64,000 nucleotides of DNA from Chloroflexota bacterium (GTDB lineage: Bacteria > Chloroflexota > Dehalococcoidia > SHYD01): NCBI GenBank assembly GCA_016190485.1, contig JACPQN010000066.1, positions 8,446-72,445 of the forward strand. Reading direction: 5' to 3'. Made by a program: the position numbers and the translations under genes. Under the pieces are notes generated by a model that was given only the letters and a program-made list of their open reading frames with translations, did not search any database and was not told the origin of the DNA. Positions 12,473 through 43,179 of this stretch are shown here, in pieces (within the stretch, counting starts at the first letter, position 1; every line of letters begins with the position of its first letter).

Positions 12473-13828
12473 TTGAACATGGTAGCTCGGCTGGCCCAGC
12501 GGATGGGCCTTTTTTATGGGTGGTGCATCGTGGCGGCCGGCGGCATTCTGGCGGCCGTGGCTGGTGGCACCTTCTTCTTCGGCTTCAGCGCTCTCTTCGA
12601 GCCCATCATCCGGGAGTTTGGCTGGAGCCGCGCCGCCACCTCCGTTGCGTACTCGCTGCGGGCGGAGGTCGGCGGGTTGGAGGCGCCCGTCATCGGGGTG
12701 CTGCTGGACCGCTTCGGGCCGCGACGGGTGATGCGGGTGGGCCTGCTCCTCCTGAGCCTGGGCATGTTCATCATCGCGGCCACCCAGAACATCTGGATGT
12801 TCTACGGCGGCTTCATCGTGGCCACCGTGGGGATGGGGGCCTGCGGCGGCCTGGTGGGGATGATGGCCATCACCCGCTGGTTCCGGCGGCTGCGAGGCAG
12901 AGCCCTGGCGCTGATGACGGTGGGCAACGGCCTGGGCGGCCTGATGGTGCCGATCATCGCGCTGCTCATCCTCTCCTTCGACTGGCGCACGGCGGTGGTG
13001 GTAGCTGGGGTGTACATCCTGGCCGCCGGGCTTCCCCTCACCTACGTCATCGTGGATCAGCCGGCCCGCATGGGCCTGGCGCCCGACGGTGATCCGCCAG
13101 CCCAACACCCTGAAGCAGACCCTCCGGATGGTAGTGTGGCGCAAGGGGAGTACCTGATGCCGGGAGCGCCGGCTGAGCAATCTTTCAGCGGCCGGGAGGC
13201 GCTGAAGACTCGCTCCTTCTGGATGCTGGCCCTGGCGCTGGCCTTCATCGGCCTCTCCGGCAGCGCCGTCACCGTGCACCTGGTACCCTTCTTCACGCAC
13301 GTGGGGATGCCCGACCAAGTGGCGGCCCTGGGTATGACAGCCCTGGCCATCATCAGCCTGGTGGGCCGGCTGGGCTTCGGTTTTGCGGCGGACACCTACG
13401 ACAAGCGCTATGTCATGGCCGCAGCCATCGGTATGCAGGCCCTGGGGAGCATCGGGTTGGCGCTGGTGCAGAACGTCTGGTCCGCCGCTCTGGTGCTGGC
13501 CGTCCTGAGCCCGGGCTTCGGCGGGACCGTGCCGGTGCGCCCCGCGCTCCAGGCGGAGTATTTCGGCGTCCGGTCCTTCGGCGCCATCCAGGGGATGCTC
13601 ATGGCGGTGTCCACCTTCGGCGGCGCGGTGGGCCCGGTGCTGGCGGGATGGGTCTTTGACGTGACGGGCGGCTACCAGGTGGCCTGGGTATTCCTGGGCA
13701 CCCTTTCCCTCGGGGCGGTGCCTCTCCTGCTGGCCATGGGCCGTCCCCGGTCTCTCGCCGACGCCGGGGCTGTGGTGCTGTCGGGCCGGTCACCCGGCCT
13801 GCCCGACCGGCACGCGGGCCTGCACTGA
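12473..13828 (+). CDS. MFS transporter
   Basis: 12 predicted TM helices in 6+6 arrangement with a central loop. Confidence 0.85.
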   Translation: MNMVARLAQRMGLFYGWCIVAAGGILAAVAGGTFFFGFSALFEPIIREFGWSRAATSVAYSLRAEVGGLEAPVIGVLLDRFGPRRVMRVGLLLLSLGMFIIAATQNIWMFYGGFIVATVGMGACGGLVGMMAITRWFRRLRGRALALMTVGNGLGGLMVPIIALLILSFDWRTAVVVAGVYILAAGLPLTYVIVDQPARMGLAPDGDPPAQHPEADPPDGSVAQGEYLMPGAPAEQSFSGREALKTRSFWMLALALAFIGLSGSAVTVHLVPFFTHVGMPDQVAALGMTALAIISLVGRLGFGFAADTYDKRYVMAAAIGMQALGSIGLALVQNVWSAALVLAVLSPGFGGTVPVRPALQAEYFGVRSFGAIQGMLMAVSTFGGAVGPVLAGWVFDVTGGYQVAWVFLGTLSLGAVPLLLAMGRPRSLADAGAVVLSGRSPGLPDRHAGLH

Positions 13829-13830
13829 GG

Positions 13831-14490
13831 CTACTCCGCCCAGGCGCGGCCTAGGGCCATCTGCTCGCTGACCGGCTCCAAGGTCCAGGGCGAGAGGTGG
13901 ACGGCGGAGGCGCACCCCGGGCAGCCGTAGCGCCCCAGGAGGCGGTCAGTGTCCATGGCCTGGCGCACCAGGTGCAGCGCCGGCAGGGGCACAGAGAAGT
14001 GGCCCTGGCAGCTCGGACACTGCACGGAGAGCGCCCCGTCGAAGAGCTCGAAGTCCACCCGCAGCAGCCACAGCAGCCGTCCTATGGCCACCTCCGGATG
14101 CCGGGGCTCGTAGAGCACGGGCTGGCGCAGCTCAGCGAAGCCCGAGAGCTGCACACCGCTGCCCTGGATCACGGGCAGCAGGTACTTGCCCAGGGCCATG
14201 GCTGCCCCCAGCTCCTGGTGCACCCAGGCGGAGCCGTTGCCGGCCTCGGTGAGGAAGGCGACGATGTGGTGAGAGTCCCGCAGGGCCTGGAGCACCACTG
14301 CGCCCTGCGGCCGCCCCGGATGGGGGAAGTGCTCGTACATGTAGGCCCGCAGTCCCAGGCGGTCCAGCACCCGCCACACCCGGTCCACCAGCAGGAAGTC
14401 CTCGTGGGCGTGGGAGAGGTAGACGTGGAAGGGATAGGACTCTCCTTCCCCCTGGGGGAAGGAGAGGGTGGGGGCAGGCCCTCTCACCAC
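13831..14490 (-). CDS. TIR-like domain protein with C-terminal Cys-rich region (GTG start; true start uncertain)
   Basis: FHVYLSHAHEDF...IVAFLTEAGNGSAWVHQELGAAMALGKYLLPVI matches TIR_2/DUF1863 topology; CPSCQGH...CPGC at C-terminus; N-terminal 20 codons are encoded by a palindromic repeat. Confidence 0.6.
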   Translation of the reverse strand: MVRGPAPTLSFPQGEGESYPFHVYLSHAHEDFLLVDRVWRVLDRLGLRAYMYEHFPHPGRPQGAVVLQALRDSHHIVAFLTEAGNGSAWVHQELGAAMALGKYLLPVIQGSGVQLSGFAELRQPVLYEPRHPEVAIGRLLWLLRVDFELFDGALSVQCPSCQGHFSVPLPALHLVRQAMDTDRLLGRYGCPGCASAVHLSPWTLEPVSEQMALGRAWAE

Positions 14491-14530
14491 TGCCAGACCC
14501 TCACCCTAGCCCTCTCCCACAGGGAGAGGG
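14437..14530. repeat. hairpin repeats: CTCTCCTTCCCC/GGGGAAGGAGAG palindrome plus family copy 1 (CACCCT..CCCTCTCCC-aca-GGGAGAGGG)
   Basis: perfect inverted repeats read directly in sequence; same family recurs at 15135, 34093 and 37446. Confidence 0.8.
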
Positions 14531-14695
14531 AACCGTGTTGTCATTCTGAGCGAAGCGAAGAATCTGGGGCGGTGGAGTCCGTGTATCTGCATCGTCCTCA
14601 CGCCAGTCTCCCTAAGGGAGAGAGGAAGCGCTTGCTTTAGTTGTCACGCACCCAGTTTGCACCTCTCGCACGATGCCGTAGCCTCTGGCTCATGC

Positions 14696-14989
14696 TCACC
14701 GTGACTTACGAGTCGACCGCTTCACGATTCGTCCTCGGTAGTCCATGAGACCTGTCTTCAACCCTTGGAGTCGCTCTAGTGCGGTGGGAAGTTGTTGCGT
14801 AGGTAGGGCTACGTAAGCAGGTCCTGAGCCACCTCCCAATTGTCTCAAAGCTGTGGGTATTTCATCCGCAGTGCTTTTTACCTCGGCCCGACCCCTGGTT
14901 CCCTTCACATCCGGGCTTGAGGAGGGATCATACGTCCCCCCAAGCTTTTGCGCGATGATCCTGGCTGCACGATCATGAGCCTTTGCCAT
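14696..14989 (-). CDS. small (97 aa) Hjc/YraN-like PD-(D/E)XK mini-nuclease, hypothetical
   Basis: PDVKG-x5-AEVKST resembles the PD...(E)VK core of Hjc-type resolvases; own RBS AAGGGGG 7 nt upstream; local GC lower than the genome average. Confidence 0.4.
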   Translation of the reverse strand: MAKAHDRAARIIAQKLGGTYDPSSSPDVKGTRGRAEVKSTADEIPTALRQLGGGSGPAYVALPTQQLPTALERLQGLKTGLMDYRGRIVKRSTRKSR

Positions 14990-15045
14990 GTTGCTTACCC
15001 CCTTTCTGAGGCCGTTACAAGCCCACTCGTTCTGTCAGCTGTCTC

Positions 15046-15130
15046 CCTAGCACTGGCTCCAGCCACACTCCTGGTAGGTCATTCAGCGCTCGGCGTAGTA
15101 GACAGTAGCCTGGCCGCAGGCGCATTTGTT
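15046..15130 (-). pseudogene. degenerate duplicate of the nrdJ 3' end (zinc-ribbon coding segment)
   Basis: about 85% identical to 15178-15265; translates KCACGQATVYYAER*MTYQECGWSQC* versus the authentic ICPDCGQAAVYYAEGCMTCQECGWSQC*. Confidence 0.6.
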
Positions 15131-15134
15131 GTTC

Positions 15135-15178
15135 ACCCTCACCCTGTCCCTCTCCCCTCAAGGGAGAGGGAACGAAAT
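15135..15178. repeat. hairpin repeat family copy 2 (TCACCCTCACCCT-GT-CCCTCTCCC-ctcaa-GGGAGAGGG-AAC)
   Basis: read directly; sits between the authentic nrdJ stop and its degenerate duplicate. Confidence 0.8.
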
Positions 15179-15179
15179 C

Positions 15180-17810
15180 CTAGCACTGGCTCCAGCCGCA
15201 CTCCTGGCAGGTCATGCAGCCCTCGGCGTAATAGACGGCGGCCTGGCCGCAGTCGGGGCAGATGGCCCCCAGCGGGCGGGCGGATGGCTTCTCGATGGTG
15301 GCGGCCAGCCCTTCGACAGGCTCAGGACGCGGCTCGGCCAGGGCCTTGTGCTCCGTGGGCGGCGGCGTCTCGACCTCCACGCCCAGGTAGCGCCGCAGGG
15401 CCTTGGCGATGGCGTCGGGGATGGAGCGCACCCTCCCGTTGCCGAAGCCGAAGGTGGCGTAGCCGCCGATCCCCTCGAACTGCTCGATGATCAGGAGCAG
15501 CCGCTCCCGCCGGGGGAGGGGCGCGGAGAGGCGCAGGAGCTGGGAGATGGCCCGGCAGGCCGCCTCGGTCATGGCCTGGATGTCCGACCCCGCCTTGCCG
15601 ATGGTGGCGAAGACCTCGAAGGGCTCCCCCGGCGAGACCTCGCTCACCGTGACGTAGAGGTTGCCGAAGGGCGTGGGCTGCTTGATGGTCTTGGAGTCGA
15701 GCACGTCGGGCCGGGGCGCCACGGCCTCCTGCCAGTGGGCCACCGGCGCCGGAGCGGGCTGTGCCGGGGCGGGCGCGTTGCCCGCGGTGAGCACCTGGCC
15801 GGCCCGGCTGGAGTCCCGGTAGATGGTGATGCCCTTGCAGCCCTCCCGATAGGCCAGCATGTAGGCGTTCCACACGTCGTCCACCGTGGCGTGGGCCGGG
15901 AAGTTGATGGTCTTGCTCACCGCGTTGTCGGTGTAGCGCTGGAAGGCCGCCTGCATCCGCACGTGCCACTCCGGGGTGATGTCGTGGGCCGTCACGAAGA
16001 CCCGCTGCGCCTCCTCCGGCACGCCGGCCACGTCGTGGCAGCTCCCGTGGGCCGCCACCTCGTCCATCAGCTCCTCGGAGTAAAAGCCCTGCCCCCGGGC
16101 CGCGGCCTCGAAGAAGGGGTTGACGAAGCGCTCTTTGATGGCCCCCTCCAGGCCGTGGTGCATGAAGCTGAGGGCGAAGACCGGCTCCACGCCGCTGGAG
16201 GCCCCGGCGATGAGGGAGATGGTGCCGGTGGGCGCAATGGTAGTGCGAGTGGAGTTGCGGTACCGGGGGCCGCCGGGGTAGTCGTAGATGCTGCCCTCCC
16301 AGGTGGGGAAGACGCCCCGCTCCCCGGCCAGCTCAACGGAGGCCTCATTGGCTCCCCGGTTGATGAAGTCCATCACCGCCTCGGCCAGGCGCAGCGCCTC
16401 CTCGGAGTCGTAGGGCACGCCCAGTTGCAGCAGCAGGTCGGCCCAGCCCATGACCCCCAGGCCGATCTTGCGGGTGGCCTTGGTCATCACCTCGATCTCG
16501 GGCACCACGTACTTGTTCATGTCGATGACGTTGTCCAGGAAGCGGGTGGCCAGCCGGGTGACGGCCGCCAGGCGCTCCCAGTCCACACGGTCGGCGGGAC
16601 TTTGTCCGGCGCTATTGGAGCGCACCATCTTGGAGAGGTTCAGTGAGCCCAGGTTGCAGGACTCGTAGGGCATCAGGGGCTGCTCGCCGCAGGGGTTGGT
16701 GCTCTCCACGGGCGCGATGTGGGGGCAGGGATGGTCCCGGTTCACCCGGTCAATGAAGACGATGCCGGGGTCGCCGTTCTTCCAGGCGTTCTCCACCATC
16801 TGCTGAAAGACCTCTCGCGCCCGGAACTGCCCGGACACCTGCCCGGTGCGGGGGTTGGTGAGGTCGTAGGTGCGGTCTTCCTCCACCGCTCGCATGAACT
16901 CCTCGGTCACGGTCACGGAGATGTTGAAGTTGGTGACGGAGACCATGTCGGCCTTGCAGGTGATGAACTCCTGGATGTCCGGGTGGGTCACGGAGAGGAT
17001 GCCCATGTTGGCGCCCCGGCGCATGCCGCCCTGCTTGATGGCCTCGGTGGCGGCGTCGAAGACCTTCATGAAGGAGACGGGGCCGCTGGCCACCTGGCCG
17101 GTGGACTGGACGATGTCGTTGGCGGGGCGCAGCCGACCAAAGGCGAAGCCGGTGCCGCCGCCGGTTTTGTGGATGAGGGCCGCGTGCTTCACCGAGTCGA
17201 AGATCTTGTCCAGGGAGTCCTCCACCGGCAGCACGAAGCAGGCGGAGAGCTGCTGCAGCTCCCGGCCCGCGTTGGCCAGGGCGGGCGAGTTGGGAAGGAA
17301 CTCCAGGTTGGCCATGATCTGGTAGAACTCCTCGGCCCAGGCGGCCGCGTCGGCCTGGGGGTTGTAGAGGAGCTCCGCCTGGGCCAGGTTCCAGGCCACC
17401 CGGCGGAACATCTCGTCGGGTGTCTCCACCACCCGGCCGTGGAGGTCCTTTTTCATATAGCGCTTTTCCAGCACCGTCACCGCCTGGGGCGTGAGCCTCG
17501 GTATGCCCCTGAGCCGGGTGGGCGCCCTGGGGATGACAGTGCCTGGCACGCCCGTCGTGGCGGGCACAGGGGCGGCGCGGAAGGCGCGGCCCTCCCGCAG
17601 GGCGCCGATCTCCTCCTCCAGCCGGGCCACGGCCGAAGCGCCGAAGATGCTCAGGCGCGCTGCCACGTCGGCCACTGACCAGGTGGCGGGCGCCGCCGCC
17701 GGAGCGGGATCGCTCTGGGCGACGGGGGCCAGGCCTGCCTGCCGGACAGGCAGGTGGGCTGCTCGCACGGATGTATGTTTCCGGCCGTTGCCGTTAGCGT
17801 TGGTTGTCAA
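15180..17810 (-). CDS. nrdJ: adenosylcobalamin-dependent (class II) ribonucleotide reductase
   Basis: 876 aa, class II RNR catalytic core, C-terminal CxxC...CxxC zinc ribbon. Confidence 0.9.
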   Translation of the reverse strand: MTTNANGNGRKHTSVRAAHLPVRQAGLAPVAQSDPAPAAAPATWSVADVAARLSIFGASAVARLEEEIGALREGRAFRAAPVPATTGVPGTVIPRAPTRLRGIPRLTPQAVTVLEKRYMKKDLHGRVVETPDEMFRRVAWNLAQAELLYNPQADAAAWAEEFYQIMANLEFLPNSPALANAGRELQQLSACFVLPVEDSLDKIFDSVKHAALIHKTGGGTGFAFGRLRPANDIVQSTGQVASGPVSFMKVFDAATEAIKQGGMRRGANMGILSVTHPDIQEFITCKADMVSVTNFNISVTVTEEFMRAVEEDRTYDLTNPRTGQVSGQFRAREVFQQMVENAWKNGDPGIVFIDRVNRDHPCPHIAPVESTNPCGEQPLMPYESCNLGSLNLSKMVRSNSAGQSPADRVDWERLAAVTRLATRFLDNVIDMNKYVVPEIEVMTKATRKIGLGVMGWADLLLQLGVPYDSEEALRLAEAVMDFINRGANEASVELAGERGVFPTWEGSIYDYPGGPRYRNSTRTTIAPTGTISLIAGASSGVEPVFALSFMHHGLEGAIKERFVNPFFEAAARGQGFYSEELMDEVAAHGSCHDVAGVPEEAQRVFVTAHDITPEWHVRMQAAFQRYTDNAVSKTINFPAHATVDDVWNAYMLAYREGCKGITIYRDSSRAGQVLTAGNAPAPAQPAPAPVAHWQEAVAPRPDVLDSKTIKQPTPFGNLYVTVSEVSPGEPFEVFATIGKAGSDIQAMTEAACRAISQLLRLSAPLPRRERLLLIIEQFEGIGGYATFGFGNGRVRSIPDAIAKALRRYLGVEVETPPPTEHKALAEPRPEPVEGLAATIEKPSARPLGAICPDCGQAAVYYAEGCMTCQECGWSQC

Positions 17811-17917: not shown

Positions 17918-18313
17918 TTAGCCGAGCTCTAGCTCTAGCACCGCCCTTCTGGAGAGCGCGATATGCCGCTCCTGGCCGCTGACCACCTCGGTCAGGAAGC
18001 CCTCCTTTTCCCAGTATTGTACCCATTCCGTGTTGACCGAGAAGGCCAGCAGGAGCTGCTCCAGCTCCTGTGCGCTCTTACCGCCGCTGTTGAAGATGTC
18101 CCGGAACATCCGTTGGGAGCTCACGTGTGGCTCCGACCAGCGGGTGGCTTCCTGGGCTCGGGCCAGGGCGGCTTCCTGGGCCTGGGACGCGGCATCGGTT
18201 TCCTGGTGCGCGGTGGCCTCCGGCAGACCGGCGTCCCCGCGGCTCTCGGGGGCGGGCTCGTCCTGAGGTATGCCGCCCTGGGGGTTCTCTTCGTCAGCGT
18301 ATCGGGAGGGCAT
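17918..18313 (-). CDS. hypothetical protein (acidic N-terminus), in nrdR-nrdJ operon
   Basis: ORF with codon usage like its neighbours, co-oriented between nrdR and nrdJ; no recognisable domain. Confidence 0.35.
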   Translation of the reverse strand: MPSRYADEENPQGGIPQDEPAPESRGDAGLPEATAHQETDAASQAQEAALARAQEATRWSEPHVSSQRMFRDIFNSGGKSAQELEQLLLAFSVNTEWVQYWEKEGFLTEVVSGQERHIALSRRAVLELELG

Positions 18314-18711: not shown

Positions 18712-19257
18712 TTAGCTCGTCTGGTTTCTAGGCCGCCTTCCCCGGCGCCCCCGACCCCTCGGCTCCTCGGGCAGCAGCGGGAGCTGGGTGGCCGGGGGTC
18801 TGCCGCTCTCCCGGCCCGCTGCCAGGGTCTCCACCTCCCGCCGTAGCGACTCCAGGTCCGTGAACTCCCGGTAGACGCTGGCGAAGCGCACGTAGGCGAT
18901 CTGATCCAGGGCTTTGAGCCGCTCCATCACCAGCTCTCCGATGAGCGCGCTGGCCACCTCTGCCCGCCCCAGGCGGTGCAGCTCGGCCTCCACCTCGTTG
19001 ACCAGCCGGTCCACTGTCCCTGTGGGCAGCGGACGCTTGGCGCAGGCTGTCCGTACCCCTGCCAGGAGCTTGCTGCGGTCGAACTCCTCCCGTCGGCCGT
19101 CCTTCTTGATGACGTAGAGCGCCTGCGCCTCGATGCGCTCGTAGGTGGTGAAGCGGGACTGGCAGTTGAGGCACTCCCGTCTCCGCCGGATGCCCGCTTC
19201 CACGTCCCGGGAGTCGATGACCTTGGAGTCGGGGTGCTGGCAGTAGGGGCACCTCAC
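18712..19257 (-). CDS. nrdR: transcriptional repressor NrdR
   Basis: MRCPYCQHPDSKVIDSRDVEAGIRRRRECLNCQSRFTTYE zinc ribbon + ATP-cone. Confidence 0.9.
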   Translation of the reverse strand: MRCPYCQHPDSKVIDSRDVEAGIRRRRECLNCQSRFTTYERIEAQALYVIKKDGRREEFDRSKLLAGVRTACAKRPLPTGTVDRLVNEVEAELHRLGRAEVASALIGELVMERLKALDQIAYVRFASVYREFTDLESLRREVETLAAGRESGRPPATQLPLLPEEPRGRGRRGRRPRNQTS

Positions 19258-19375
19258 CGCCGGTCTCCTCCTGCATCACGCTGCTCATGTCGGCTACCGC
19301 CGGGCGTTCCCGACAGCCCACGACGTAAGGACAGACCCCCCCTATGCCACATCTTGTGGCGTGGCAGTACCGTAA

Positions 19376-19392
19376 CACTATATTTGGGGATT
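19376..19392. promoter_or_regulatory. putative NrdR box in AT-rich promoter island
   Basis: aacactatatttgggg approximates the NrdR-box consensus acaCwAtATaTwGtgt; about 120 bp upstream of nrdR; a second weaker tATATgaaATATgt element lies at 19414-19434. Confidence 0.3.
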
Positions 19393-31369: not shown

Positions 31370-32536
31370 GTGGCTTACAGCCCCGTTTACGATGCCCCTC
31401 CGTTCACTGATTTCGCTTCAGTAACGCCGGATACACGCCTAGAAGAGCTGAATCTGAACTGGCGGGAGCAGGACCTTCCAGAGGGATCCCGTACAAAGCA
31501 CGTCCATCGTCTCCATCCCTACCTGGGCAAATTCGTTCCTCAACTAGTCGAAATCTTCCTGAGGAAGTACCAACCAAGGGTTGTGTGTGACCCATTCTGT
31601 GGATCAGGAACGACGCTGGTTGAAGCCAACGCTATGGGCATAGATGCAATTGGGTGTGACATTTCTCCCTTCAATGTCTTACTTACGAAAGTCAAGACTG
31701 CCGAGTACAACATTGCCAAATTGGAAAAAGAAATCAAGGACATTGTTACGAGGATTACTCTTGCCTTGAAGCCAGGGCTTTTTGAAGGTGAGGTCGAAGA
31801 CACTGACAATGCATATTTGCGAAGCTGGTACGCGCAGCGAGCAAGGGTCCAGCTTCTTTTCTTTAAGTCCCTGATTCCACAGTACGAACATCAAGATCTT
31901 CTCAAAGTGATCCTTTCGAGAGCAGCACGGTCGGCTAGGCAAACCACCCATTTCGACTTGGATTTCCCAAAGCGGCCGCAGACAGAGGATTACTATTGCT
32001 ACAAACATGGGAGGACGTGCCAGCCCACGAGCGATGCGCTGGGCTTCTTGACTCGCTATTGCTGGGACACGCTTAGAAGGATACGCGCTTTCTCGGAACT
32101 GCGAACTCGTGCTGCTGTGCTCTATAAGTGTGACGACTCTCGTAACATGGAGTTCCCAGAAGTAGACATGATACTGACCTCCCCGCCGTATGTGGGACTC
32201 ATCGACTACCACGAACAACACCGCTATGCCTACGAGCTGCTTGAAATGCCCATGCAAGAGGAGCAAGAAATTGGCGCCGCAAAAAGAGGTGCCTCGGAAA
32301 CAGCTCAGCGTGCGTATATAGAGAATATAGGCACAGTGTTTCGGAACCTTCGCGAGGGACTGCCTGCAGATGGGGTAGCGGTTATAGTGGTGCATGACCG
32401 TCGCAGGCTCTATGAAGGATTGGCAGAACAACTTGGGTACCGACAAGAACTGGAGTTACGCCGGCATGTAAACCGACGTACAGGCCGGAGAGCGGGAGAT
32501 TTTTACGAAAGCGTGTTGGTGTGGCGGAAGACATAG
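31370..32536 (+). CDS. DNA amino-methyltransferase (N4-C or N6-A; motif I before TRD before motif IV = alpha-like order)
   Basis: motif I VVCDPFCGSGTT, motif IV TSPPY; GC clearly lower than flanks; AGGAGG RBS. Confidence 0.75.
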   Translation: MAYSPVYDAPPFTDFASVTPDTRLEELNLNWREQDLPEGSRTKHVHRLHPYLGKFVPQLVEIFLRKYQPRVVCDPFCGSGTTLVEANAMGIDAIGCDISPFNVLLTKVKTAEYNIAKLEKEIKDIVTRITLALKPGLFEGEVEDTDNAYLRSWYAQRARVQLLFFKSLIPQYEHQDLLKVILSRAARSARQTTHFDLDFPKRPQTEDYYCYKHGRTCQPTSDALGFLTRYCWDTLRRIRAFSELRTRAAVLYKCDDSRNMEFPEVDMILTSPPYVGLIDYHEQHRYAYELLEMPMQEEQEIGAAKRGASETAQRAYIENIGTVFRNLREGLPADGVAVIVVHDRRRLYEGLAEQLGYRQELELRRHVNRRTGRRAGDFYESVLVWRKT

Positions 32537-32663
32537 ACCCTGAGGCGCTCGCAACCAGCGTAGGTCAGTGTTTCAGCGCAGGACCAGACATAGGGAAGCG
32601 AATTGTCGAGGCATTCCAGCAGACCTTTGCCAACCTCTTGCACGCAGAGTGCAAGCAAAGCGG

Positions 32664-33269
32664 ATGCGAGAGATCATTAGGGACAAGAATCCTTATTTAT
32701 ATCGCGCCAGCGGCGTAAACACTTGCCAGGAAATAGTTCAGCGGGCGCTGCAAGACTACATTAGCGCTAGTGTGGAGAATAATTTTGGTGCCTTCTTTGA
32801 GGCGGTTGCTAGGATATTCTCAGGAGGGGTTAAGCCCGTTGGGGGTGGTGAGGTTGACCTGGATGTGCGGAAGGCTGATGTGGCTTTCCTCTATGCGATG
32901 AAGTCGGGATCGAAGGGCTTCAACTCGTCAAGCTACGACAAAGCCAGGCGCGACTTATTATCGGCAGAACGCAGGCTACGTCAGGACAAAGTGCGAACGG
33001 AGAAGCGGATTGCGTTTGCGTATGGCAAGAGACAGGAAACAGATAAAGATGGCATTATCCAGCTGACTAGTAAGGCTTTTTGGGGAGAAGTAAGTGGTGA
33101 TCCACTCTTCTATAAGAAGCTGTTAAATGCCTGCGCGCTGTTATCTCCTTTGTATACTGCTGATCTACAGGCACCCTATGACCGTCTATTGGAAGAAGCT
33201 CATTCGCTGTTTTGTGAAGAAGATGGAATTAACTGGGATAAAGTGCTGAAGTTAGTTTTTGGTGAGTAG
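32664..33269 (+). CDS. candidate Type II restriction endonuclease partner of the methyltransferase (start uncertain: ATG 32568 or 32664, or GTG 32521 in another frame with a frameshift)
   Basis: low-GC ORF immediately downstream of the MTase; GEVDLDV...AFLYAMKSG could be a D...(D/E)xK core; an overlapping frame-1 ORF 32521..32718 also reads protein-like, suggesting a possible frameshift. Confidence 0.35.
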   Translation: MREIIRDKNPYLYRASGVNTCQEIVQRALQDYISASVENNFGAFFEAVARIFSGGVKPVGGGEVDLDVRKADVAFLYAMKSGSKGFNSSSYDKARRDLLSAERRLRQDKVRTEKRIAFAYGKRQETDKDGIIQLTSKAFWGEVSGDPLFYKKLLNACALLSPLYTADLQAPYDRLLEEAHSLFCEEDGINWDKVLKLVFGE

Positions 33270-34092: not shown

Positions 34093-34139
34093 CAAGCCCT
34101 CACCCTTACCCTCTCCCAGAGGGAGAGGGAGGTAGCTAA
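34093..34139. repeat. hairpin repeat family copy 3 (CCTCACCCT-TA-CCCTCTCCC-aga-GGGAGAGGG)
   Basis: read directly; just upstream of sbcD. Confidence 0.8.
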
Positions 34140-37445: not shown

Positions 37446-37497
37446 AGATTTCACCCTCACCCTATCCCTCTCCCCTCGAGCCTCGAGGGCGAGGGAA
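37446..37497. repeat. hairpin repeat family copy 4 (TCACCCTCACCCT-AT-CCCTCTCCC-ctcgagcctcgag-GGCGAGGG-AAC)
   Basis: read directly; loop itself contains the palindrome CTCGAG..CTCGAG. Confidence 0.75.
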
Positions 37498-37735
37498 CCG
37501 CGAGGCGGCGTGCTAGCAACTCCCGCATTTGCCTACCCACCACGAGCACAGGGACGTTCATGGTGGGCTCATAATGCCACCACAAACTCAAGATTCTTAC
37601 GGCGGCGAGCCTAGCGAAAACAATTCCAACGAACTTTTGAAATTCGCCCAATTACGGAGCTAAGTCGATCCATAATGTGACGTGGGGTGATGATATCGGG
37701 ACAGGTGCATACAAAAGCGAACGAGGAGGGGAAAG

Positions 37736-39580: not shown

Positions 39581-41275
39581 ATGAAGATCACCTGCTACGG
39601 GGGGGTGGGGCAGATCGGCGGCAACAAGGTGCTGCTGGAGGACGGCCTTACTCGCCTCTTTTTCGATTTCGGCATCCCCTTCGGCGACCGGGCACGTTTC
39701 TTCGAAGAGTACCTGAACCCGCGCCCCGGCGCGGGGCTGCTGGACGTGATGGAGATGGGGCTGCTGCCGCCCCTGCGCGGCATCTACCGCAGCGACCTGG
39801 TGCCGGCCGGCCGGTTCTGGGAGCGGGTGGAGCGGTCGCAACACCTGAGGCCCCACCTGCGAGACCTGGAGCGCCTGGACGGGGTGCTGGTCTCCCATGC
39901 CCACGTGGACCACAACGGGTATCTCTCCTTTCTTGATCCCGGAATCCCCATCTACTCCTCGGCCATGACGGGGTTCATCGCCAAGGCCATGCAGGACAGC
40001 GGACAGACGGACTTCGAGCGGGAGTCGGTGTACGCCGTGCCCCGGAAGGAGAGCGGCGGCGTGCTCACTACGGTGACCTCCAGCAGGTCGAATCCCGCGC
40101 CAGCGCTGCAGCGGCCCTACTACTTCCCCGACCTGGCCGATCTCAGCGCCGAGGCCCTGGACTTCTGGCGTCAGACGCCCGCGGCCCGTCCCATGGATGC
40201 CGTGCTCCCCCGACAGGCGGAGGGCATCGGCGAGCTGCCGGTGCGCTTCTTTCCCGTGGACCACTCCATCTTCGGCAGCAGCGCCTGCGCGGTGGAGACC
40301 TCCGCCGGCTGGGTGGTGTACACCGGCGACCTGCGCTTCCAGGGTGGGACGGCGGCACTGACTCGGGACTTCATCCGGGAGGCGGCCCGGCTCCGCCCGC
40401 GGGTGCTCATCTGCGAAGGGACACGCCTGTCGCCGGAGGGGAACGCCGAGGCGCTCTTCGGCCCTTCGGCAAGCTCAGGACACCGCAGGCTCAGGACGGC
40501 GCCCTTCGGCAGGCTCAGGACGGCGCCGGTGACGGAGGAGCAGGTGCGGGCCAACGCGCTGCGGGCCATCGGGGGCGCCAGCGGCCTGGTGGTGGCCGAC
40601 TTCGGGCCCCGCAACATCGAGCGGCTGCGGGCCTTCCTGGAGATCGCCCGGGAGACCGGGCGGCAGCTCGTGGTGCTGGACAAGGACGCCTACCTGCTGG
40701 GCGCGATGCGCCTGGTGGACTCCGGTGTGCCGGGGGTGGAGGAGGCGCCCAACCTGCTGGTGTACCAGGACCTGCGCGCCACCCTGGCCCTGTGGCAGCG
40801 GGACCTGCGCGACCGGCTGGCCAGCAGGATCGTTGGCCCCAGCCAGGTGCAGGCGCACCTGGGGGAGTTCATCCTCTGCTTCAGCTTCTGGGACATCAAG
40901 AACCTCATTGACATCGATCCGGGGGAGGGCCTCTACCTCTACTCCTCCAGCGAGGCCTATAGCGAGGAGCAGGAGCTGGACCTGTGGCGGCTGCGCAACT
41001 GGCTGCAGCACTTCGGCCTGACGCCCCGGGGTCTTCCCCAGGAGAGCACCGACGAGCGGGGCAGGAAGGTCTACAGGACGCCCCCCGGCGAGGAGGGCTA
41101 CCACGCGTCGGGCCACGCCACGGGCGACGAGATCCTGGCCATGGTGCGGGAGATCAACCCAAAAACGGTGGTGCCGGTGCACACGGAGCACCCGGAGCTG
41201 TTCGTGGAGGGACTGAAGGGGTCCGGAATCGAGGTGCGGTTGCCGGCGTACGGCGAGGCGCTGGAGTTCGGGTAG
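39581..41275 (+). CDS. MBL-fold beta-CASP nuclease (RNase J / Artemis-type family) with in-frame repeat insertion
   Basis: SHAHVDHNG (HxHxDH), ...ASGHA and PVHTEHPE (beta-CASP motifs B/C), N-terminus ITCYGGVGQIGGN like RNase J; insert GPSASSGHRRLRTAPFGRLRTAP at 40461-40523; GGAGGAG RBS. Confidence 0.7.
   Translation: MKITCYGGVGQIGGNKVLLEDGLTRLFFDFGIPFGDRARFFEEYLNPRPGAGLLDVMEMGLLPPLRGIYRSDLVPAGRFWERVERSQHLRPHLRDLERLDGVLVSHAHVDHNGYLSFLDPGIPIYSSAMTGFIAKAMQDSGQTDFERESVYAVPRKESGGVLTTVTSSRSNPAPALQRPYYFPDLADLSAEALDFWRQTPAARPMDAVLPRQAEGIGELPVRFFPVDHSIFGSSACAVETSAGWVVYTGDLRFQGGTAALTRDFIREAARLRPRVLICEGTRLSPEGNAEALFGPSASSGHRRLRTAPFGRLRTAPVTEEQVRANALRAIGGASGLVVADFGPRNIERLRAFLEIARETGRQLVVLDKDAYLLGAMRLVDSGVPGVEEAPNLLVYQDLRATLALWQRDLRDRLASRIVGPSQVQAHLGEFILCFSFWDIKNLIDIDPGEGLYLYSSSEAYSEEQELDLWRLRNWLQHFGLTPRGLPQESTDERGRKVYRTPPGEEGYHASGHATGDEILAMVREINPKTVVPVHTEHPELFVEGLKGSGIEVRLPAYGEALEFG
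40461..40523 (+). repeat. minisatellite insertion in beta-CASP gene (variant units cccttcggcaag / ctcaggacggcg)
   Basis: read directly. Confidence 0.8.
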
Positions 41276-41285
41276 GCAGACTTGC

Positions 41286-43179
41286 GATGTTGCTCTCAGA
41301 AGTCGAACTTGAAAATTTCAAGGGTGTATTCACGAGACAGCGCATTGGCGGGTTGAGACGAGTCAATACGCTCATCGGCCGGAACAATGGTGGCAAGACA
41401 TCTTTGTTGGAAGCCTTGTGGGCTGTCCGAGACTCTCTGGTTGGTGGGCAAGTGGCAGAAGATATGACGACGTTGTTGCCATTTCGTGAGGCTGATAGGG
41501 TGATGAGAATAAGGCTGACATTTGAACTCGAGCAGGAAGAATACCAGCAACTACGCGACCACTTGGAAGTCGATCTCCAGCCTAATATCACTACGATCCC
41601 TGCGGCCTGCACCTGGGAATTTGTTTGGGAGCCAAGCCTGGGCACTGGAAACAGGCTACTTCCAACTTCATGTACATTACGGCTGAATGACCGAAACTTG
41701 ACGGTTTGGGTCGCAGATAGTGCGGGTGATTTGAGGGCTGCGCGCTGGGATGAGGCGCGATCGTTCTACGTCAGTAGAAGGCAGGGACTGGTGCTTCAGC
41801 TTCACAGCATCGGGAGCGTCCAATCGCGTCTACGAGTACAAGGTCCCAATGATGCAGCGCAGTTCGGGATGAATCTTGCGCTTGGCTTTGCCCAAAAGTT
41901 GAGGTTTCGCAGAACAGTCCGGGTGGCCGACGATCGGTCGCCAGCGTCACAGAACAGCGAGCTAGATGAGCAAAGCAAGAACATCTCTCAAGTGCTTCTC
42001 ACGCTGAAAAACAACGAAGCGCAGGTTTTCGAGAGGATCGAGAACACTCTGTGCAGAATTCTGCCTGAAGTACGGGGACTTAGTACGCCCTTAGAGGGTA
42101 CTGAAACGGCCCTAAAGCCAGCCCTCGAAGCTAGCAGACTTGAGAAGCATGCCTTTTACCTGTCTGAAATGGGTTTCGGCACACAGCAGGTACTTGCTCT
42201 CCTGACTACAATCTTTTGCTCTCCCAGTGGAAGCCTAGTCTTGATCGAGGAACCCGAGATATGTCTTCATGCGGATGCCCAAAGAAGTCTCGCAAGTTTT
42301 TTGGTGGAGTACTCAAAGAAAACCAACACGCAATTTATAATGACTACTCATAGCCCCATATTCGCTCCGCAAGGAAGCGAAGGGGCGACTTACCTTGTTA
42401 AGTGGGACCAAGAGAATGGGACTACTTATTCCCGCGTTCGCGAGGGAGAAGCATCGATAATCAAAAGAGAGTTGGGATGGCGAAACGCGGATCTTTTCAT
42501 GAAAGACGGGGTTGTCTTTTGGGAGGGGGAGAGTGAGGATGCTGCAATGCCTATCCTTATTGATGCACTCGGTTATGGAGAAAGGATGCCCGCCATCGCT
42601 TCCATCAGTTTGCGTGGCAGTGTAGCGGATAGGCTGAGAGTGCTACGTGAGTTCCTTCGCTATCTTCAGGGTTCAGACCTGAAACCCTTTGTTTTCTCTG
42701 ACGACGACGAGCACGTGGCGACAACTATTCAGAACTTAATCGCTGAAGGTCTTCTGCCGCAATTGAACTACCACATTTGGGGAAGGAGTCCTGGAAATCT
42801 TTCTGACGTATTGTCAGGGTTGGAATTTGAGGATAATTTCCAGGTTTCGCAACTTATTGAAGCTGCCAACGCCCAGGCAGCGGAATCGGGTCAAGCTGAG
42901 AGACTAACTACTGACGGATTCAGGAAAAGTCGACAGACCATTAAGACAAAGAAAAAGACAAGCAAAGCACTCAACGACTATTTTCACAATAAAGTTGGTC
43001 GAGGGTTGGATAAACCCACGCTGAATAAAGCGTTAGCTCTTATGGTCGCTCGTGAGCTTCGAAATGAAATGCCGAGGTCTGTTCAAACATATGAATTCAA
43101 GGGGGCGATAAAAGATCTGTTCGATGTCCTGTATCCCGTTCGTAAAGGAGAGGCCGAGCAACCCGAGGACCAGATGTAG
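41286..43179 (+). CDS. OLD-family ATP-dependent nuclease (ABC ATPase + TOPRIM), class 1 / orphan GajA-like
   Basis: Walker A GRNNGGKTSLLEAL, Walker B LVLIEEPEICLH, H-loop FIMTTHSP, TOPRIM-like VVFWEGESED and DxD FVFSDDDEH; GC about 50% versus about 68% in flanks. Confidence 0.65.

Follow-up and report, generated by a model that had tools for sequence, protein, structure and literature searches.

A TIR-zinc-ribbon gene conserved behind nrdJ and a foreign mini-nuclease-fold gene in the intervening spacer of a Chloroflexota bacterium

A gene for a TIR-domain protein and an open reading frame of 97 codons lie side by side, with hairpin repeats around the latter, behind the class II ribonucleotide reductase gene nrdJ in a Chloroflexota bacterium (contig JACPQN010000066.1), which raises the question of whether the two genes work together. 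A sequence-only reading of the window (the whole stretch of 64,000 nucleotides analyzed here) had taken them for a TIR and mini-nuclease pair within one repeat-bounded insertion. Our analysis makes it quite likely that three unrelated things adjoin by accident at this locus, namely a native TIR gene, a foreign insert with the small gene (s97) and a scar made of a decayed nrdJ end, and that the TIR protein and s97 do not form a system.

The nrd cluster and its TIR-zinc-ribbon gene

The cluster is encoded on the reverse strand and starts with nrdR (18712..19257), which encodes a repressor with a zinc ribbon and an ATP-cone (Pfam Zn_ribbon_NrdR, 6e-20; ATP-cone, 6e-22). A fuzzy consensus scan and reading of the sequence located a pair of NrdR-box-like 16-mers 5' of nrdR and just 3' of a TTGACA (19344..19390, reverse strand; 19375-19390 and 19344-19359, with a start-to-start spacing of 31 nt). 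The pair is a probable operator of the nrd cluster, and its spacing fits the linker of 15-16 bp given for NrdR box pairs in PMC13584703. The interval between nrdR and nrdJ holds a hypothetical ORF of 131 aa (17918..18313, reverse strand), which had no match in a Pfam search and is conserved within the clade, where L039-L045 encode counterparts of 34-49% identity at the equivalent position (tblastn). The product of nrdJ (15180..17810, reverse strand; Pfam Ribonuc_red_lgC, 1.7e-136, lgN and TSCPD) has a Cys-rich zinc finger at its C-terminus, and the gene has a GC3 of 0.94. The TIR-zinc-ribbon gene (13831..14490, reverse strand) is an intact ORF of 219 aa, and a convergent MFS transporter gene (12473..13828, forward strand; Pfam MFS_1, 3.4e-45) closes the cluster at a position that is not conserved, being occupied by DinB_2 or a HAD hydrolase in relatives.

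The TIR_2-type domain claimed in the sequence-only reading was confirmed by Pfam, where residues 23-110 matched TIR_2 at 4.5e-10 and 40.5 bits (cutoff, 28 bits), and by fold searches. The domain spans about 14053-14430 and includes E93, the putative catalytic Glu (codon 14212-14214), and the four zinc-ribbon cysteines are encoded within 13912-14019, all on the reverse strand. Foldseek searches with an AF2 model (pLDDT 74) matched the TIR domains of SARM1 (3.6e-6) and TLR1 (9e-5, with SAWVHQEL aligned with SEWCHYEL), as well as those of SPARTA, MAL and Cat1. The family comprises 20 clusters and has 45 invariant residues, E93 and the four Cys among them. The CxxC...CxxC tail noted earlier is thus a constant feature of the family (C158, C161, C190 and C193 are invariant in 17 members), and the C-terminal tail, SPWTLEPxSEQxALGRAW, is conserved.

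The protein resembles bacterial single-domain TIRs (TIR_2, ThsB-like, SARM1 and SPARTA TIR-APAZ) in passing the TIR_2 gathering threshold, and NADase TIRs in having an S-x-W-x-x-x-E-L helix with an invariant Glu. Because this Glu is kept, the TIR-zinc-ribbon protein is predicted to be active, most likely as an N-glycosidase on NAD+ or a related nucleotide. Unlike single-domain TIRs, it is fused to a family-specific four-Cys zinc ribbon and a conserved C-terminal helix, and the ribbon and tail may serve as its regulatory or sensor part. Unlike Thoeris and other TIR systems, it has no ThsA, SIR2, SLOG, cyclase, Argonaute or STING nearby; in agreement with the earlier reading, PADLOC detected no known defence partner among the eight neighbouring proteins. 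The match to the PADLOC models of Thoeris ThsB was weak (2e-6).

The TIR gene was found directly 3' of nrdJ and on the same strand in all seven independent Chloroflexota loci that have a family member (the window, L038, L039/40, L041, L042/43, L044 and L045), while the genes 5' of nrdR (ftsZ/MFS, sulfite reductase or glycosidase) and 3' of the TIR gene (DinB_2, HAD or MFS) varied. The spacers between nrdJ and the TIR gene measured 66 nt at the shortest and 1.7 kb at the longest. Those of L038 (66 nt) and L045 (220 nt), both short, contained no called ORF and no promoter-like or terminator-like site, and the spacer of L041 was uninterrupted (149 nt) with a single REP-like hairpin. Identity to the window was 70-75% for NrdJ and 53-68% for the TIR protein in the same genomes. 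The composition of the TIR gene tracked that of nrdJ in every relative and is host-like in the window (GC3, 0.91). In a high-GC clade of Chloroflexota, the TIR-zinc-ribbon gene is inherited vertically and specific to the lineage, with a fixed position directly 3' of nrdJ in a cluster of nrdR, small ORF, nrdJ and TIR. Since the synteny is orthologous, it represents one retained arrangement and not seven independent associations. Unlike defence TIRs, this TIR gene occupies one chromosomal position and not a variable island, and the layout of the short-spacer genomes suggests that it is probably co-transcribed with nrdJ there.

The foreign segment in the nrdJ-TIR spacer

The lower-GC stretch and the two hairpin repeats reported in the sequence-only reading are present, but the TIR gene does not belong to an insertion that they bound. 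GC drops to 0.56-0.58 over about 14550-15150, from about 0.70 on either side, and only about 14534-15134 is foreign, s97 having a GC3 of 0.50 in the window against the values of 0.91 and 0.94 for the TIR gene and nrdJ. This insert (14534..15134, between REP1 and REP2) consists of the pseudo-nrdJ end, s97 and a 3' spacer, the parts of which have a GC of 0.55-0.60 vs. 0.69-0.71 in the flanking genes. REP1 (15135..15173, reverse strand; ACCCTCACCCTnnCCCTCTCCC-loop-GGGAGAGGGAAC) lies 6 nt past the nrdJ stop and folds into an RNA hairpin of 11 bp (-21.5 kcal/mol). REP2 (14497..14533, reverse strand; families D3 and D5) is oriented like REP1 and lies 6 nt 5' of the start codon of the TIR gene (RNA hairpin, -22.8 kcal/mol). 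A degenerate REP-like hairpin of family D3 (14606..14627, reverse strand; 73% identity to the reference copy) is located in the 3' spacer of the insert. Like REP-type repeats in general, these are GC-rich, intergenic hairpins (37-39 nt) whose 5' arm is conserved and which recur, with four copies in the 64 kb (the others at 34096 and 37453) and copies in the same spacer of relatives. The hairpins are a dispersed genomic repeat and not element-specific ends.

Directly 5' of s97, the final 27 codons and the stop of nrdJ are present in a second, decayed version (15046..15130, reverse strand), which the first reading of the sequence had missed. Over 77 nt (15046-15122), the copy is 88% identical to the 3' end of nrdJ (15179-15255), and it reaches about 15130 when a 3-nt indel (a one-codon deletion) is allowed. 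It contains an in-frame TGA and has lost two Cys codons (translation, NNKCACGQATVYYAER*MTYQECGWSQC*). The copy is of the clade type, with an identity of 0.85-0.86 to both the resident and the L045 end. A single donor would not readily account for the insert, since its pseudo-nrdJ end matches the high-GC clade and s97 is low in GC. The spacer downstream of nrdJ is an insertion hot spot in the window's clade.

On the sequence evidence, s97 is a recent foreign insertion from a mobile family. A foreign segment of ~600 nt was inserted between nrdJ and the TIR gene, probably at or beside a REP hairpin already resident there, and a REP copy now stands on each side; this candidate role of REP in the insertion is read from its placement on both sides of the insert. 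The pseudo-nrdJ end would be an acquisition scar, either because a related donor supplied s97 together with the end of its nrdJ or through local duplication of the resident 3' end.

The s97 family

The s97 gene (14696..14989, reverse strand) is an intact ORF for a stand-alone protein with a PD-(D/E)xK fold that carries SPDVKG...AEVKS. Its 72 homolog clusters (88-99 aa, nearly all 95-98; 55-73% identity) show that the small ORF is a genuine gene. Searches of Pfam, PHROG, NCBIfam and PADLOC gave no match for any of 62 members. The AF2 model (pLDDT 94.3; topology a-bbb-a-b-a-bb) has a restriction-endonuclease-like core, a-bbb-a-b, with D27 (codon 14909-14911) and E36-x-K38 (codons 14882-14884 and 14876-14878, all reverse strand) on strands 2 and 3. 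The best structural matches in Foldseek were MmcB-like nuclease models (E 5e-3, probability 1.0, TM 0.72), and weak PDB matches included the nuclease domains of Bax1, SdaI, Can2 and MspJI mixed with unrelated folds. As modeled, the fold is a minimal PD-(D/E)xK one, and the s97 family is undescribed. The earlier label of Hjc-like holds at the level of this fold and fails at the level of Hjc and YraN profiles, neither of which matched.

Archaeal Holliday-junction-resolvase (Hjc/AHJR)-like proteins were defined in PMC1189080. Like these and other minimal PD-(D/E)xK nucleases (MmcB-like DUF1052), s97 has an Asp that starts strand 2 and an E-x-K on strand 3, and its motifs co-align with an AHJR-like protein, with an hhalign probability of only 14%. 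Unlike both groups, s97 is shorter, at ~97 aa, and its Lys is variable in the wider family. Among 62 members, the Asp at position 27 is kept in 60, the Glu at position 36 in 52, H5 in 55 and a Lys or Arg at position 90 in 55; the residues at position 38 are E (35 members), A (12), K (7) and V (4). Catalysis is not assured given this variability of K38, and the window's subfamily has a complete D...ExK motif. The s97 protein may be a small, probably oligomeric, metal-dependent DNA endonuclease.

The genomic contexts of s97 were surveyed in ~40 fetched loci, which gave about 25 distinct loci besides the window; about 20 loci were informative. Of these ~20, seven independent loci fall within the nrdR-nrdJ locus, where s97 occupies three different positions; s97 starts 18 nt past the nrdJ stop after a GGAGG-type RBS motif in L027 and L049/50, and 30 nt past nrdR in L003. 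About two thirds of the informative loci are unrelated to nrd, with SMC/AAA ATPases, an R-M methylase with RadC, UvrD, a DDE transposase, a large serine recombinase with RusA and an AHJR-like gene, Panacea antitoxins, HNH or HTH/M78 with HMUDK/MazG. In L017, s97 is beside RusA and an AHJR-like gene, and in L046 a thymidylate-kinase-like gene and MazG are close by. Members of one derived clade have in common a ~445-nt unit, including a TGnTATACT box and a 5'UTR of its own, within flanks that are unrelated. The GC3 of s97 was below that of nrdJ in all six genomes compared. The nrd-linked copies form deep, diverse branches in a distance tree, the rooting of which is weak because the tree is midpoint-rooted and covers 97 residues; these branches are as compatible with an ancestral functional link to the nrd operon as with repeated homing.

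A free-standing homing endonuclease gene, mobE, lies between nrdA and nrdB of T4-type phages, and the known families of homing endonucleases are LAGLIDADG, GIY-YIG, HNH, His-Cys box, Vsr-like and larger PD-(D/E)xK enzymes. The s97 gene resembles such genes at nrd in being small, self-contained, compositionally foreign and patchy, in recurring at differing positions around a highly conserved reductase gene, and, in the window, in being flanked by a piece of the neighbouring gene. Unlike the homing endonucleases of phage nrd genes, which are a subject of PMC3653736 and PMC2677866, s97 occurs in cellular contigs, and a pattern scan of IMG/VR and searches of GenBank phages and PLSDB plasmids did not find it. 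By analogy, s97 may be a selfish or mobile cassette akin to a free-standing homing endonuclease, which would land repeatedly in the nrdR-nrdJ locus and also in prophage, IS, R-M and toxin-antitoxin neighbourhoods.

Roles of the two genes

A two-gene anti-phage unit that arrived as one repeat-bounded insertion, with a sensor or NADase role for the TIR protein and a co-effector role for the nuclease, is highly improbable, even though the genes are adjacent on the same strand (205 nt apart), the TIR protein has its weak ThsB matches, and s97 homologs are frequent in defence or mobile neighbourhoods. The two genes contrast sharply in GC3, a family HMM search detected no s97 in L038-L045, the six other TIR loci, and a TIR gene was present in none of the ~25 other distinct s97 loci. 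The bounding repeats belong to a dispersed REP family. The conserved TIR gene adjoins a housekeeping gene, nrdJ, in 7 of 7 loci, and the small ORF is absent from the other six, a pattern that the sequence-only reading had itself named as refuting the pair. The pairing was rejected because of the composition contrast and because neither gene recurs beside the other; the genes are neighbours as a result of one insertion event and not of recurrent pairing. For the TIR protein itself, it is possible, if unlikely, that it is a nucleotide-pool enzyme tied to the reductase, such as a DNPH1/BcmB-type (deoxy)nucleotide N-glycosidase or an NAD/nucleotide-pool regulator, and not an immune effector. DNPH1/Rcl and BcmB/MilB (N-deoxyribosyltransferase-like fold) share a similar three-layer fold and catalytic-Glu logic with it, DNPH1 and the CMP N-glycosidase BcmB were among its fold matches (E about 1e-4, 16-26% identity), and their role would suit its nucleotide-metabolism neighbourhood. 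Its position next to nrdJ is fixed across ~30% NrdJ divergence while the surroundings change, its composition is native, and defence genes are usually found in variable islands. However, it is most similar in both sequence and fold to true TIR domains (TIR_2, TLR1, SARM1 and SPARTA), and, unlike DNPH1 and BcmB, it lacks a sequence-profile match (none to Nuc_deoxyrib_tr at E <= 1). Synteny alone does not show function, and the TIR gene could be an old arrival that stayed in a spacer that is an insertion hot spot.

Two other roles can be considered for s97. It might be a non-selfish accessory nuclease of the NrdR-controlled nrd operon, e.g., a structure-specific or resolvase-like enzyme expressed with dNTP synthesis, whose ancestral home was the Chloroflexota nrd locus and of which one sublineage later moved onto mobile elements. 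This role has a minor share of the probability. The deep, diverse nrd-linked branches, the close spacing to nrdJ or nrdR in L027, L049/50 and L003, the motif alignment with a resolvase-type AHJR-like protein, the RusA and AHJR-like neighbours in L017 and the thymidylate-kinase-like and MazG neighbours in L046 are consistent with it, and the NrdR boxes 5' of nrdR would place nrd-linked copies inside the regulated unit. Against it are a GC3 below that of nrdJ in every genome compared, a position that varies between lineages, absence from six of the seven genomes of the window's clade, the roughly two thirds of informative loci outside nrd, and the weak rooting of the tree. Less probable still is a catalytically inactive nuclease-fold protein with a small DNA-binding or regulatory role, as the variable position 38, the loss of E36 in 10 of 62 members, the very small size and the basic C-terminal tail would suggest; D27, H5 and E36 are otherwise well kept, K/R90 could replace the missing Lys, and the motif is complete in the window's subfamily.

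The preferred reading, a native TIR gene beside a recently inserted s97, leaves two leads: the conserved linkage of nrdJ with the TIR-zinc-ribbon gene in high-GC Chloroflexota, and what may be a new family of mobile mini-nucleases found repeatedly at nrd loci.

Gene order and composition at the nrd locus

The window derives from a Chloroflexota MAG. Its whole gene series of interest lies on the minus strand, in the order nrdR, a 131-aa ORF, nrdJ, s97 (a 97-aa ORF) and the TIR gene. The first gene, nrdR (18712-19257), was preceded by two NrdR-box-like 16-mers that lie 31 nt apart beside a TTGACA (19344-19390). Such boxes were located solely upstream of nrdR, with none found near s97 or the TIR gene, and the nrd cluster is probably autoregulated from one operator. 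NrdR-like boxes were also detected upstream of nrdR in three contig loci that carry s97 homologs (L003, L027, and L049). The conserved 131-aa ORF between nrdR and nrdJ (17918-18313) had no Pfam match, occupied the same position in six related loci at 34-49% identity, and is a second uncharacterised member of the nrd cluster in the window. Next comes nrdJ (15180-17810), which encodes 876 aa and matches Ribonuc_red_lgC at 1.7e-136, and after it the hairpin repeat REP1 (15135-15173) and a copy of the nrdJ 3' end that has decayed (the pseudo-nrdJ end, 15046-15130). Beyond these lie s97 (14696-14989), a 160-nt spacer with a degenerate hairpin in it, another hairpin repeat (REP2, 14497-14533) and the 219-aa TIR ORF (13831-14490). 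An MFS transporter gene on the plus strand (12473-13828) is convergent with the TIR gene. The motif GTCATTCTGAGCGAAGCGAAGAATC, which we take to be part of a repeat widespread in several phyla, adjoins REP2 at 14540-14564 and has one copy in the window.

The sequence-only reading had placed the TIR gene and s97 together in a repeat-bounded insertion and proposed them as a paired TIR and mini-nuclease system. The hairpins and the lower-GC stretch on which it drew are indeed present. The GC3 of s97 was 0.50, against 0.94 for nrdJ, 0.91 for the TIR gene, 0.89 for nrdR and 0.88 for the MFS gene, and the foreign stretch extends from about 14534 to 15134, leaving the TIR gene outside. The hairpin repeat, ACCCTCACCCTnnCCCTCTCCC-loop-GGGAGAGGG, is dispersed, with two more copies at 34096-34131 and 37453-37500, both intergenic and near low-GC stretches; it forms a REP family, and element-specific terminal repeats are ruled out. 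Rfam searches of the spacers for structured RNA gave sub-threshold chance matches only, and hairpin energies were unexceptional against shuffled sequences.

Neither gene accompanied the other at the further loci surveyed. The s97-family HMM found no copy at six other TIR loci, and the neighbourhood survey of s97 homologs, which had been proposed as a check for recurrent TIR linkage, gave no TIR gene at about 25 other distinct loci (about 40 fetched). The flanks of s97 loci had no homology to the window past the ORF. Composition, synteny and co-occurrence thus rule out a two-gene TIR and nuclease system, and the pair is an accidental juxtaposition. The TIR gene is conserved and housekeeping-linked and the small ORF is missing in relatives, the very outcome that the sequence-only reading had named as counting against it. 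This negative verdict spares a phage-challenge experiment on a chance gene pair.

Elsewhere in the window, a low-GC type II restriction-modification pair on the plus strand (31370-33269) comprises an N6_N4 DNA methylase (31370-32536) and an EcoO109I-family endonuclease (32568-33269) and has stretches at GC 0.44-0.48, among the lowest in the window. A 731-aa AAA_15/AAA_21 (SMC_N-like) ATPase (40984-43179, plus strand), the 3' part of whose gene lies in a GC trough at 42.0-42.9 kb (GC 0.44-0.48), may be of a defence or abortive-infection type.

A TIR-zinc-ribbon gene behind nrdJ

The assignment of the TIR protein to a TIR_2-type fold was borne out by profile and structure searches. The Pfam TIR_2 profile (PF13676) gave 40.5 bits (E 4.5e-10), above its cutoff of 28, and the same domain was precomputed for 17 of the 20 TIR-family clusters. 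The AF2 model (pLDDT 74, core 80-89) has a flavodoxin-like TIR fold. Foldseek gave 85 PDB matches at E <= 1e-3, mostly TIR domains; those of SARM1, SPARTA, MAL, Cat1, and TLR1 matched at E 4e-6 to 1e-4, with SARM1 at E 3.6e-6 and TMt 0.67-0.76. In a PDB search, the family profile matched the TIR domain of TLR1 (9e-5), aligning SAWVHQEL with SEWCHYEL. E93, within SAWVHQELG, is invariant in 17 TIR-family sequences and falls in this motif; its position is presumably that of the SARM1 catalytic Glu, in the helix after strand C. Also invariant in the 17 members are both CxxC pairs of the tail noted earlier, which form a zinc ribbon, a YMYEHxPHPG stretch and the C-terminal SPWTLEPxSEQxALGRAW tail. 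We infer that the TIR protein is an active N-glycosidase. An NCBI "TIR domain-containing protein" of a Chloroflexota bacterium is 100% identical to it.

The N-terminus is unconserved and modelled at pLDDT below 50; the true start may lie elsewhere, or the ORF may have absorbed a REP remnant. A perfect 13-nt palindrome (CTCTCCTTCCCCC / GGGGGAAGGAGAG) lies within the first 20 codons, at 14440-14466.

ThsB models matched the TIR protein weakly (best 25.4 bits, E 2e-6) and over residues 21-97 only. The absence of a ThsA partner, reported from sequence, held: Pfam searches found no ThsA (SIR2/SLOG or Macro/TM) beside the TIR gene, whose neighbours are nrdJ, s97, and the MFS gene; PADLOC gave no match and no partner gene among eight flanking proteins. 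A search of PLSDB with the TIR protein gave no match.

In all six further loci of the family that were examined (L038, L039/40, L041, L042/43, L044, and L045), the TIR gene shared its strand with nrdJ and came directly after it, in the cluster order nrdR, one to three small ORFs, nrdJ, TIR. Identity to the window was 70-75% for NrdJ and 53-68% for the TIR protein, and the composition of the TIR gene followed that of the host in each genome compared. The genes outside the cluster varied. Upstream of nrdR the window has a glycosidase, and the relatives have either a sulfite reductase or ftsA-ftsZ, the latter accompanied by an MFS gene in some cases; downstream of TIR the window has the MFS gene, and the relatives DinB_2 or a HAD hydrolase. 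The nrdJ-TIR spacer ranged from 66 nt to 1.7 kb, and in the shortest spacers a search for promoter-like and terminator-like sites found none; the TIR gene is probably co-expressed with nrdJ.

Several of these spacers had been invaded. L042 contains a winged-helix ORF. L039 (7060-7930; the same in L040) contains a tandem array of four units, each about 165 nt long and bearing a REP-like hairpin, followed by a 105-aa ORF with a sub-threshold Pfam match only (DUF6914, E 0.008); the s97-family HMM finds no copy there, ruling this ORF out as an s97 relative. L044 (5386-6889) contains a YceI gene and a 165-aa ORF whose composition is foreign, its GC3 being 0.49 where that of nrdJ is 0.87. The region just after nrdJ seems to be a hot spot for insertions in the window's clade.

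Two roles can be set side by side for the TIR protein, and the present data are compatible with both. It may be a fixed single-gene immune effector, or it may be a nucleotide-pool enzyme, as DNPH1 and BcmB were among its fold matches, although true TIR domains gave the best sequence and fold matches. A literature search for TIR proteins linked to ribonucleotide reductase operons found nothing relevant.

Fold and family of s97

The small ORF is a real gene, since it has 72 homolog clusters at 55-73% identity that are 88-99 aa long, nearly all 95-98 aa. An exhaustive profile search of 1.84 billion representatives recovered only 116 clusters (50% identity), mostly stand-alone proteins of about 90-100 aa, with fragments and a few longer proteins. 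Neither s97 of the window nor 62 relatives matched Pfam (E <= 1), PHROGs, NCBIfam, or PADLOC.

The AF2 model of s97 (pLDDT 94.3, pTM 0.86) consists of a helix, three strands, a helix, a strand, a helix and two strands, and its elements H3-15, E18-20, E28-30, E33-37, H41-51, and E58-62 make up an a-bbb-a-b core like that of restriction endonucleases. D27 lies at the start of strand 2 and E36-V-K38 on strand 3. The best Foldseek matches were models of MmcB-like nucleases in a viral structure library (E 5e-3, probability 1.0, TM 0.72). Matches to PDB structures were weak (E >= 0.19), the nuclease domains of Bax1, SdaI, Can2, and MspJI appearing among unrelated folds, and PDB sequence searches with two s97 profiles returned nothing meaningful. 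The model supports a predicted mini PD-(D/E)xK fold. The window protein and its close subfamily have all three of D27, E36, and K38; across the wider family D27 was found in 60 of 62 sequences, H5 in 55, E36 in 52 and K38 in seven, position 38 being mostly Glu or Ala. Judged by these residues, catalysis by s97 is likely, though not certain.

The domain and fold calls of the sequence-only reading are thus right at the superfamily level, while its "Hjc-like" label for s97 is not established. Pfam gave no match at E <= 1 to the Hjc or AHJR-like (Holliday-junction-resolvase-like) families (PF01870, PF18743) for s97 or 62 relatives, and neither Pfam nor NCBIfam matched s97 to YraN / UPF0102. An hhalign comparison of s97 with a four-sequence AHJR-like alignment gave E 0.002 at a probability of 14%, with the H[DH]..IA, PD[IV], EV[KE], and QL motifs in register; enlarging the AHJR-like family for this comparison yielded only three homologs.

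Mobility of s97 and probable history of the insert

Copies of s97 at nrd loci occupied three different positions in seven independent loci including the window. The gene lay between nrdR and nrdJ in L001/2, L003, and L028 (where the nrdR end only is visible), 18 nt past the nrdJ stop in L027 and L049/50, and after nrdJ and a DUF3467 gene in L047. About 13 other informative loci were unrelated to nrd, and their identifiable neighbours were mostly of mobile or conflict-region types: SMC/AAA ATPases, a restriction-modification methylase with RadC, UvrD, a DDE transposase, a large serine recombinase with RusA and an AHJR-like gene, Panacea antitoxins, an HNH gene, and HTH/M78 with HMUDK-type kinase and MazG genes. 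By a rough estimate, seven of about 20 loci beside one gene pair is far beyond chance, even if counted as three events. The closest homolog (72% identity) lies in a phage-like block (L046 699-6325) beside genes for an XRE-type HTH protein, an M78 peptidase, a thymidylate-kinase/HMUDK-helical protein and MazG, which is another nucleotide-metabolism neighbourhood.

In a distance tree, the non-nrd copies formed one derived clade, whose members mostly have a unit of about 445 nt in common, set in flanks that are otherwise unrelated. This unit combines the ORF with a TGnTATACT promoter-like box, a conserved 5'UTR and about 55 nt on the 3' side. It was seen in L009, L010, L013, L015, L018, L023, and L024, where it reaches from about 100 nt before the ORF to 55 nt after it, and its conserved 3' stretch ends near GGTAACCAATTGACG; terminal inverted repeats and target duplications were not evident in these seven loci. 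The GC3 of s97 was lower than that of the adjacent nrdJ in all six comparable genomes. Within the window's clade, s97 was present in one of seven genomes, with foreign GC3, in a spacer that is short elsewhere. No s97 was found in IMG/VR (by pattern scan), GenBank phages, or PLSDB, and a scan of genome contigs gave only a spurious 38-residue match in an Actinomycetota MAG.

Our reading of these gene contexts is that s97 is probably a mobile, self-contained mini-nuclease gene that prefers the nrd locus, in the manner of a homing endonuclease. The main rival holds that s97 is a true accessory nuclease of the NrdR-controlled operon that escaped later; in its favour, the nrd-linked branches are deep in the tree and the spacing in L027, L049, and L003 is tight and operon-like. 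The data fit either account.

The pseudo-nrdJ end may preserve part of the history of the insert. Positions 15046-15122 (77 nt) are 88% identical to the live nrdJ 3' end, and the likeness extends to about 15130 with a one-codon deletion; the translation reads CACGQATVYYAER*MTYQECGWSQC*. In type this end belongs with the high-GC clade (its QATVYYAE matches L044, and it is 0.85-0.86 identical to the nrdJ ends of the resident gene and of L045) and differs from the ends of the low-GC genomes, in which s97 comes immediately after nrdJ. The stop codon of the pseudo-nrdJ end precedes the s97 start by 57 nt. The pseudo-nrdJ end fits the idea that s97 may once have sat, or travelled, right behind an nrdJ end. 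That idea does not account for the order of intact end, REP, pseudo-end and s97 or for the compositional mismatch. Both ends, the intact and the decayed, lie to one side of s97 at a distance of 133 nt from each other, and the REP hairpin alone comes between them; as the two ends are adjacent and no recombinase lies in or beside the insert, an integrative island with a replacement 3' end is ruled out. No comparable scar was found at 12 other nrd loci or at other s97 loci. The uninterrupted nrdJ-TIR spacer of L041 contains one REP-like hairpin and the repeat is dispersed, so the simplest history is an nrdJ-REP-TIR state followed by insertion. Insertion at or beside the REP would then have left a REP copy on each side.

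A joint reading, which we consider unlikely, takes nrdJ-TIR-zinc-ribbon as a functional module and s97 as the founder of a new family whose members would be the smallest homing-type PD-(D/E)xK endonucleases known. The TIR enzyme would guard or tune deoxynucleotide supply, for example by cleaving NAD+ or a nucleotide once it senses that the reductase or the dNTP pool is disturbed; the s97 family would target ribonucleotide reductase loci of Chloroflexota, and the pseudo-nrdJ end would be a co-conversion scar. If so, the TIR protein would be embedded in core metabolism and not in a defence island.

What remains is a lineage-specific TIR-zinc-ribbon gene syntenic with nrdJ and, separately, a family with a minimal PD-(D/E)xK fold, mobile and undescribed, which is found repeatedly at nrd loci. 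Mobile, lacking an entry in Pfam, PHROGs, NCBIfam, and PADLOC, and having its own promoter-like box in one clade, the s97 family could represent a very small homing or structure-specific nuclease. A TIR enzyme held at a fixed place behind an essential nucleotide-synthesis gene across a clade is unusual for prokaryotic TIR proteins, and the nrdJ-TIR arrangement offers a tractable case for asking whether TIR domains act outside mobile immune islands.
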